A stretch of 64,000 nt of DNA from Escherichia coli (GTDB taxonomy: Bacteria; Pseudomonadota; Gammaproteobacteria; Enterobacterales; Enterobacteriaceae): assembly GCF_003018255.1 (NCBI RefSeq), contig NZ_CP027440.1; one strand, written 5' to 3'. The notes under the pieces were generated by a model. It saw nothing but the letters and a program-made list of their open reading frames with translations. It made no database searches and was not told the DNA's origin. The translations under genes and the position numbers were made by a program. Below, piece by piece: positions 37,424-37,852 of the stretch (within the stretch, counting starts at the first letter, position 1; each line of letters begins with the position of its first letter).

Positions 37424-37852
37424 ATGTATTGCCGTGCTGTACCTGTTCTTGTTTTGATATTAGCCAGTCTGACAACTGGCTGCACAAAAGATGTATCGAC
37501 AAATAATCATGATGCTTCTCTGTATCACTCAGATAAATTAATAACGTCGCAAAAATTGAGCTCATCGGAACGTACCCCTGATGCCAGTGAAGAAATCCGG
37601 CAGTATGCCATTCAGGTCAGGAAAGCCATAGAAGAACAGTTAAAGGATGCGAGTAAGTATTCAGGAAAAGAGTGTTCACTGAGAATGTATATGGCCCCGA
37701 ATGGTCTTCTGCTACGGGTTAAAAGAGAAAGCGGTGATCCCGATTTATGTCGTGAAGCGATGAATGCAGTAAAGAATGCTGATATACCATCACCACCGTC
37801 TTCAGGAGTATATAAAGCATTTAGAAATGGCGTGCTGGATTTTAAACTCTGA
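37424..37852 (+). CDS. lipoprotein with TolA C-terminal (domain III)-like domain
   Basis: Signal peptide plus lipobox LTTGC; C-terminal YAIQVRKAIEEQLKDASKYSGKECSLRMYMAPNGLLLRVKRESGDPDLCREAMNAVKNADIPSPPSSGVYKAFRNGVLDFKL parallels recalled TolA C-terminus. Confidence 0.7.
   Translation: MYCRAVPVLVLILASLTTGCTKDVSTNNHDASLYHSDKLITSQKLSSSERTPDASEEIRQYAIQVRKAIEEQLKDASKYSGKECSLRMYMAPNGLLLRVKRESGDPDLCREAMNAVKNADIPSPPSSGVYKAFRNGVLDFKL

Follow-up and report, generated by a model that had tools for sequence, protein, structure and literature searches.

A predicted lipoprotein with the fold of TolA domain III at the stx2 position of an Escherichia coli prophage, and its possible role as a decoy for Tol-dependent colicins and filamentous phages

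What is a protein named TolA doing among the late genes of a lambdoid prophage? The gene in question lies in a stretch of 64,000 nucleotides of Escherichia coli contig NZ_CP027440.1 (assembly GCF_003018255.1), here called the window, which runs from E. coli chromosome (opp, tonB, yciABC, ompW) into a lambdoid prophage inserted beside ompW. In RefSeq its product (WP_000271628.1) is called "cell envelope integrity protein TolA", and yet the protein is a third of the length of TolA. A preliminary description of this DNA had read it as a 142-aa lipoprotein with the lipobox LTTGC, located in the late accessory region of a prophage; the open reading frame and the lipoprotein signal pattern are indeed present, and the gene does lie between Q and the holin gene of the lambdoid prophage. 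Its parts are as follows.

37424..37852, + strand: coding sequence of the lipoprotein with TolA domain III (TolAIII), 142 aa, ATG start, stop codon included (ORF list)
37412..37415, + strand: Shine-Dalgarno sequence GGAG, 8 nt upstream of the start codon (visible in the sequence)
37424..37483, + strand: predicted signal peptide and lipobox, residues 1-20 (MYCRAVPVLVLILASLTTG, then C; sequence pattern)
37484..37582, + strand: disordered Ser/Thr/Asp-rich tether, residues 21-53 (AF2 pLDDT 56-62, without secondary structure)
37583..37849, + strand: TolA domain III, residues 54-142 (phmmer, Pfam, AF2, Foldseek)

The N-terminus, MYCRAVPVLVLILASLTTGC, has one basic residue and a 12-residue hydrophobic core, and then L-T-T-G-C at residues 16-20. 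The 142-aa product is predicted on this pattern to be a lipoprotein, with Cys20 as the predicted lipidated first residue of the mature form. Across a diverse set of 50 family members the lipobox Cys is conserved to at least 90%, the lipobox itself reading I-I-I-G-C or A-A-G-C in related alleles and VAGC, ITAC, LTAC or MTGC in plasmid and Salmonella members. Asp at position +2 retains lipoproteins in the inner membrane; the Thr found at this position here predicts sorting to the outer membrane, both lipidation and sorting being read from the residues of the signal region.

The remainder of the protein could be compared directly with TolA. Residues 54-141 align without a gap to residues 333-420 of E. 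coli TolA (phmmer against the PDB, E 2.8e-25), and the Pfam TolA_C profile (PF06519) matches the same domain with E 1.5e-22. The earlier claim that the domain parallels TolAIII nearly residue for residue holds for the register, which is exact, but overstates the likeness, as identity to E. coli TolA is 51% over 89 residues and about 49% of positions differ. The cysteines of the TolAIII disulfide, C363 and C388, correspond to C84 and C109 of the prophage protein and are invariant in the family. In an AF2 model built from a 50-sequence alignment, pLDDT exceeds 95 over residues 54-141 and lies at about 56-62 in residues 1-53, and the modelled elements are a helix (54-70), two strands (83-90 and 96-104), two further helices (106-118 and 127-133) and a C-terminal strand (137-141). 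The best Foldseek match of this model is E. coli TolAIII (2x9a_B; rmsd 0.7 Å over 87 columns, TM 0.94), followed by 3qdr, 1tol and 1s62, with TonB C-terminal domains far lower. Alignment and structure prediction therefore both bear out the proposed relationship to TolA domain III, and the model supports the view that the sole folded part of the prophage lipoprotein is a faithful copy of this domain.

A faithful domain III does not, however, make the protein a TolA. The SHLS motif of the domain I transmembrane helix of TolA binds TolQR (PMC12204202, PMC7391070). In the prophage protein domain I, with its transmembrane helix and SHLS motif, is absent, and the N-terminus is a cleavable lipoprotein signal peptide without His or SHLS. 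Domain II of E. coli TolA is a long periplasm-spanning helical region, rich in Ala, Lys and Glu and about 25 kDa in mass; this is absent too, as merely 33 residues, predicted to be disordered, separate Cys20 from the domain. Also absent is the context of the ybgC-tolQRA-tolB-pal-cpoB operon, the gene being found between Q, a methylase gene and tRNAs on one side and nanS-p and holin on the other, in a prophage at ompW. The NCBIfam alignments of the protein cover the last ~90-100 profile positions only, with a score of 75.9 bits against TIGR02794 (above the cut-off of 59.45) and of 102 bits against PRK09510 (below the cut-off of 213). The RefSeq name arose from the C-terminal domain, which passes the TIGR02794 cut-off by itself, and, given that the membrane anchor, domain II and the tol-pal context are all missing, it is an annotation artefact: the product of the prophage gene is a TolA_C-domain lipoprotein and not TolA. 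This PGAP mislabel is systematic for related proteins of 120-150 aa, so that the name "cell envelope integrity protein TolA" is wrong for thousands of RefSeq entries, whether the reading that we favour below or its main rival is true. Among phage protein families, PHROG 5772 (function unknown) is matched with E 1.2e-57, residues 6-141 lying on positions 2-127 of the 128 of the profile, and the same family is matched by the second paralogue of mEp460-type prophages and by the pO157 and Klebsiella plasmid proteins described below. The PHROGs scan returned, besides family 5772, three insignificant matches and no relationship to Cor or Llp, and the PADLOC defence models gave no match for the TolAIII lipoprotein.

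The presence of the RefSeq name on a protein one third as long as TolA could also be explained if the phage had picked up a fragment of host tolA, now decaying and mistaken for a gene. We consider this extremely improbable, and effectively refuted by the conservation data. The gene has its own signal peptide, lipobox and ribosome-binding site, and a match to it occurs in 894 of 5426 complete E. coli genomes. A search of IMG/VR, made with a closer alignment and not with the diverse 50-sequence one, gave 61 loci; the gene is on the Q-to-holin strand in every one of them (61/61), and the ORF is intact at 142 codons in 60, the single exception being cut by the contig end. The alleles are of two main types: a window-like type (92-99% identity) has the methylase gene and tRNAs upstream and nanS-p downstream, and an mEp460-like type (67% identity) stands directly before the holin gene. 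Between allele types dN/dS is 0.23-0.30 for the domain and 0.38-0.58 for the signal peptide and linker; judged by these comparisons, the gene is under purifying selection and maintained. Dozens of diverged clusters, moreover, have the same architecture. A recent origin by capture of host tolA was likewise considered and is ruled out by the 51% identity, by a GC content of 42% compared to 50% for the window, and by a low-resolution NJ tree of 89 residues in which the window protein groups with short lipoproteins, apart from the E. coli TolA clade.

If the gene is maintained, its position in the prophage might say what it is maintained for. Q (33725-34396) is followed by a 237-aa ORF, a DNA methylase gene (35885-36943), two tRNA genes and the tolA-like gene; then come the 3'-end remnant of a second methylase gene, an AraC-family regulator gene (38548-39273), nanS-p (41138-43102), holin and endolysin. 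The features that mark the borders of the segment are listed here.

36984..37145, + strand: two tRNA genes, anticodons CAT and TCG, just upstream of the tolA-like gene
37959..38171, + strand: STnc100-family element of 206 nt (Rfam RF02076, 172 bits), 107 nt after the stop codon
37959-38171, 39931-40126, 40190-40399, 40460-40659 and 40721-40910, + strand: STnc100 copies in the window (Rfam)
L154 8757-8968 and L002 (phage mEp460_ev081) 5700-5890, and also loci L007 and L031: STnc100 copies outside the window

From 35885 to 37166 the window is 98% identical to many Stx2 phages, and this homology stops ~20 nt past the two tRNAs, at what is the left edge of a cargo slot. In Stx2_EH2201 the order is Q, methylase, three tRNAs, stx2A, stx2B, yjhS/nanS-p and holin; since the gene order matches, the tolA-like gene occupies the slot of stx2AB. 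An STnc100 element lies directly 3' of stx2B in an Stx2a phage, and the copy at 37959..38171, which ends in a terminator-like hairpin (38141-38160, terminator scan), probably terminates the cargo module and forms its right edge. The gene resembles the moron cargo that lambdoid phages carry at fixed slots, such as stx2AB or bor after Rz. It is AT-rich and of foreign composition, and it shares with stx2AB the slot between Q and holin, the upstream methylase and tRNAs and the downstream STnc100; the stx2AB cargo, however, is a secreted toxin, and the tolA-like product is a predicted envelope lipoprotein. As to its expression, a sigma-70 scan for a promoter of its own gave two sites (chance expectation 3.0), a hairpin that immediately follows the stop codon has no T-run (terminator scan), and upstream conservation, taken as a proxy for a promoter, showed that the allele types share DNA within the gene body only. 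Outside the gene the two types have no DNA homology, which on the 3' side ends at the stop codon; the gene itself is the exchanged unit, with no shared promoter visible.

Several other elements of this prophage deserve mention. The Q-to-holin accessory region has five STnc100 copies (119-172 bits), four of them in tandem before nanS-p, and STnc100 also flanks the tolA-like gene in mEp460-type and Salmonella prophages; these copies may be terminator or insulator units, or recombination joints between cargo modules. The stretch 38324-39273 (+ strand) contains the 3'-end remnant of the second methylase (compare 36792-36943) and then a 241-aa AraC-family regulator closest to YdeO/GadX (NCBIfam E 1.4e-34, below the cut-off), which resembles prophage-borne acid-resistance regulators; remnant and regulator together suggest serial insertion of cargo modules. 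In the early-right region, a sok antitoxin RNA (31548-31722, + strand; Rfam RF01794, 118 bits) identifies a hok/sok module, and a RelE/ParE-family toxin gene is annotated near sok in the matching RefSeq genome.

In the absence of the parts that couple TolA to TolQR, the natural reading of the protein is that of a non-productive competitor, or decoy. The reading that we favour, to which we nonetheless assign somewhat less than an even chance, is that of an outer-membrane-tethered competitor for TolA ligands, uncoupled from the motor, which would give tolerance to Tol-dependent colicins and filamentous phages. The lipoprotein would hang a functional copy of TolAIII into the periplasm, on a flexible tether of ~33 residues from the outer membrane, where this copy might bind the N-terminus of TolB, the epitopes by which group A colicins attach to TolA, and the g3p N1 domain of filamentous phages. 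As it has neither the TolQR-binding transmembrane helix nor domain II, it could bind such ligands and would not transmit force. At its position beneath the outer membrane the copy would meet g3p and the translocation domains of colicins as they first emerge; this would amount to a dead-end capture ahead of the energised host TolA, and the TolB N-terminus, which TolB-dependent colicins need, might be sequestered as well. A cell so equipped would tolerate Tol-dependent invaders without the need for immunity proteins. We infer ligand binding, the tolerance phenotype and the timing of protein production; an outline of this idea was already in the preliminary description. The analysis bears out that the product is a predicted lipoprotein with the TolAIII fold, that its gene lies between Q and holin and that the TolQR-coupling parts are lacking. 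The retained ligand-binding strand and the maintenance of the gene speak for a decoy; the loss of a lysine on the face that colicin A binds, discussed next, speaks against it.

The surfaces by which TolAIII binds its ligands are known in some detail. Its C-terminal strand binds the TolB N-terminus, ColN and g3p N1 by β-strand augmentation (PMC7391070, PMC4339652), and colicin A binds the opposite edge of the sheet, through residues 375-380 and Lys368, Lys379 and Lys396, of which Lys368 is the most important for ColA binding and the partner of the essential ColA Tyr58 (PMC3365938). The preliminary description called TolAIII the partner of Pal and TolB; a contact between TolA and Pal has been reported, but it is under dispute (PMC7391070). 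In the prophage protein the C-terminal strand is retained, with LDFK in both this protein and TolA and a family consensus of FKNAxLDFK. Two of the three lysines of the ColA interface are invariant, K379 and K396 being K100 and K117 here, but the position of K368 (residue 89) is Y (as in the window protein), H or N, and position 377 (residue 98), also on the ColA face, is R, Q or E. With Lys368 replaced by Tyr, His or Asn, not every TolA ligand need be bound. A model in which g3p N1 and a Gly-rich linker were fused to the domain (37-row alignment) gave N1 a pLDDT below 50 and failed to reproduce 1TOL (rmsd 10.8 Å).

The variable ColA-face positions, together with the replacement of about half of the domain residues with respect to TolA, are also what one might see if the β-strand-augmentation scaffold of TolAIII had been turned to a ligand that TolA does not bind, such as the periplasmic face of an outer-membrane receptor used by competitors (as for T5 Llp and phi80 Cor) or a different periplasmic protein. 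We regard such neofunctionalisation as unlikely. The low-resolution tree, which separates the nearest short lipoproteins from the E. coli TolA clade, would fit it, as would the tandem paralogues of mEp460-type prophages, which have diverged so strongly that one matches the other with only 33 bits; even members at ~30% identity, however, keep a TolA-like C-terminal strand and overall consensus, no Cor or Llp homology was found in PHROGs, and the gene context suggests no alternative partner. Tandem, diverged paralogues are, besides, as expected if a decoy has to track diverse ligands.

The decoy reading also has precedents and relatives against which it can be weighed. Periplasmic TolAIII reportedly made cells tolerant to colicins and to phage f1 in work by Levengood-Freyermuth and others of the Webster laboratory in 1993. 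Fusions of a signal peptide to TolAIII, exported to the periplasm, serve to render E. coli cells leaky (PMC6195910, which cites Levengood-Freyermuth 1993 and Wan & Baneyx 1998). As in the prophage protein, an isolated exported domain is there uncoupled from the motor, which provides a laboratory precedent for a dominant-negative or decoy effect; the engineered domain, however, is soluble, overexpressed and host-derived, whereas the prophage protein is natural, predicted to be lipid-anchored, diverged and borne by a mobile element. With E. coli TolAIII itself (PF06519; 1S62, 1TOL, 2X9A, 3QDP/3QDR) the prophage domain shares the fold (rmsd 0.7-2 Å), a gapless alignment, the disulfide and the C-terminal strand, but the host domain is attached to a TolQR-coupled anchor and domain II and encoded in the tol-pal operon, whereas the prophage domain sits on a predicted lipid anchor and a short disordered linker. 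T5 Llp and the Cor proteins of phi80 and N15 are, like the predicted product, small phage outer-membrane lipoproteins facing the periplasm. Llp and Cor block FhuA, the entry route of competitors (bioRxiv 10.64898/2026.03.26.714494; PMC11436027). They bind the receptor itself and have no sequence relationship to the prophage protein, which would instead imitate the energy-transducing hub and bind the invader or TolB. On the decoy reading, the protein is a phage and plasmid lipoprotein of the exclusion type that reuses the entry hub of its own host; it is widespread, and mislabelled in databases.

Where the gene lies raises a difficulty for the decoy reading. Stx2-phage cargo at the stx2AB slot is expressed on induction. 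Since the gene sits in this slot and has no promoter region common to its alleles, the protein may act, or be made, mainly after induction, in which case exclusion would be of little use. Constitutive sequestration of TolB, on the other hand, should produce a tol-like, bile-sensitive envelope that is costly in the gut, which also counts against a decoy, as do the loss of Lys368 and the existence of some chromosomal family members not obviously on mobile elements. The same location fits a product of the lytic cycle, and we weighed the possibility, which we hold to be fairly unlikely, that the protein is a Q-antiterminated late product that titrates the TolB N-terminus, stops Pal mobilisation and loosens the outer membrane, with blebbing and leakage, so as to help the spanins and the release of progeny. 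The gene is on the strand of Q and holin in 61 of 61 loci, directly before holin in mEp460-type phages, and in the stx2AB slot with no promoter region common to allele types; periplasmic TolAIII has served to make E. coli leaky (PMC6195910) and tol-pal mutants hypervesiculate (PMC7391070). Homologues on plasmids and chromosomes, however, come without a lysis cassette, these phages already have endolysin, holin and spanin genes, Stx, the other cargo of the same slot, has no lysis function, and the recurring partner of the protein is a TonB C-terminal domain (see below) with no known role in outer-membrane integrity. Should the protein nevertheless weaken the envelope in this manner, Tol-Pal, which is currently being explored as a target for antibiotics, would have an inhibitor of natural origin. 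Under the decoy reading we would instead be dealing with a new class of defence determinant, neither receptor blocker nor immunity protein, which uses a copy of the host entry hub as bait; such bait would partly account for the tolerance to colicins and the resistance to filamentous phages of natural isolates, would bear on bacteriocin- and phage-based therapeutics against STEC and Klebsiella, and would mean that the Shiga-toxin slot of lambdoid phages swaps very different cargo.

Such interpretations have to accommodate the relatives of the protein beyond lambdoid prophages. A HMMER search of 1.84 billion representative proteins gave 303 matches at E ≤ 0.001, and among the best 150 of these 303 about 60, as clusters at 50% identity, are proteins of 115-150 aa in which a lipobox is followed by TolAIII. 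A TolAIII lipoprotein is also matched by 1326 plasmid records, including pO157-type and Klebsiella IncF plasmids, and the Salmonella prophage member again lies between Q and holin. On these sequences, the family is a broad one of lipobox-plus-TolAIII proteins, on prophages, on pO157-type and Klebsiella plasmids and on some chromosomes; the neighbourhoods of its distant members are mostly on short contigs. That the carriers are competing mobile elements, both prophages and plasmids, counts in favour of the decoy reading. The open-access full-text literature yielded no published characterisation of TolAIII lipoproteins borne by mobile elements.

Individual members show further arrangements. In mEp460-type prophages two TolAIII lipoprotein genes stand in tandem; the second, in phage mEp460_ev081 (L002 6580-6975), encodes 131 aa with lipobox VAGC and lies directly after the first gene and before holin. 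Its closest relative is a 143-aa protein of a pO157-type plasmid (L009 5947-6378; E 9e-81), whose gene is located between the hok/psiAB leading region and toxB. On a Klebsiella IncFIB plasmid (L006 6406-7435) a gene for a DsbC-like thioredoxin-fold protein is immediately upstream of the gene for a 144-aa TolAIII lipoprotein and, given the disulfide of TolAIII, a functional link between them is possible. A 135-aa member on a 93-kb metagenome contig (L151 8001-8408) lies between genes for a ClC channel and an OpuAC-type ABC transporter, in surroundings that look like an ordinary stretch of chromosome, from which it follows that the family is not restricted to mobile elements.

The partner mentioned above is encoded in the same prophage.

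48078..48419, + strand: second prophage lipoprotein, a TonB C-terminal domain (CTD) of 113 aa in all with lipobox LVMGC (TIGR01352, solved TonB CTDs)

This protein scores 56 bits against TIGR01352, whose cut-off is 27, and matches a solved TonB CTD with E 3e-16. Its gene follows the lysis and Rha genes, the position that lambda uses for bor, and is also found in phage 21 and in Stx1a phages. Seven IMG/VR contigs carry both this gene and a tolA-like gene of the window type, although part of this linkage may be due to a common phage backbone. It is possible that the TonB-CTD lipoprotein is a functional counterpart of the TolAIII lipoprotein, outside the transcription module of the tolA-like gene, in which case it would do the equivalent against TonB-dependent colicins and phages. 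A second pairing is found on a 10,060-bp ColRNAI plasmid of Klebsiella pneumoniae (NZ_CP043584.1; L008 762-1495), where a tolA' gene (lipobox LLTAC) overlaps by ATGA a tonB' gene that encodes an ordinary signal peptide and a TonB C-terminal domain. The plasmid also encodes a colicin-like tRNase, with immunity and lysis genes, and the tolA'-tonB' pair is present on ~380 near-identical Klebsiella plasmids in PLSDB. SOS control of this pair was considered and rejected, as the only LexA-like box lies before the colicin gene. Two unrelated replicons, the prophage and the Klebsiella plasmid, thus pair the tips of both periplasmic force transducers, which is a further point in favour of the decoy reading.

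A broader proposal, which we put forward as doubtful, is that a general "import blockade", assembled from the stolen tips of both host force transducers, is encoded on mobile elements of Enterobacteriaceae; in it, a tethered TolAIII and a periplasmic or tethered TonB CTD would provide cross-tolerance, independent of immunity proteins, to both colicin groups and to Tol- and Ton-dependent phages. Should this be true, such decoys would explain a sizeable part of the natural insensitivity of E. coli and Klebsiella to colicins and phages, their carriers would include STEC prophages, pO157 and epidemic Klebsiella ColRNAI plasmids, and lambdoid phages would use the stx slot generally for cargo that serves competition. 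A minor observation concerns, finally, the annotation of the TonB-CTD lipoprotein, which matches PHROG 1267, a family labelled "Rz-like spanin"; this label, probably assigned by position, is open to doubt, as the protein lacks a membrane segment at its C-terminus.
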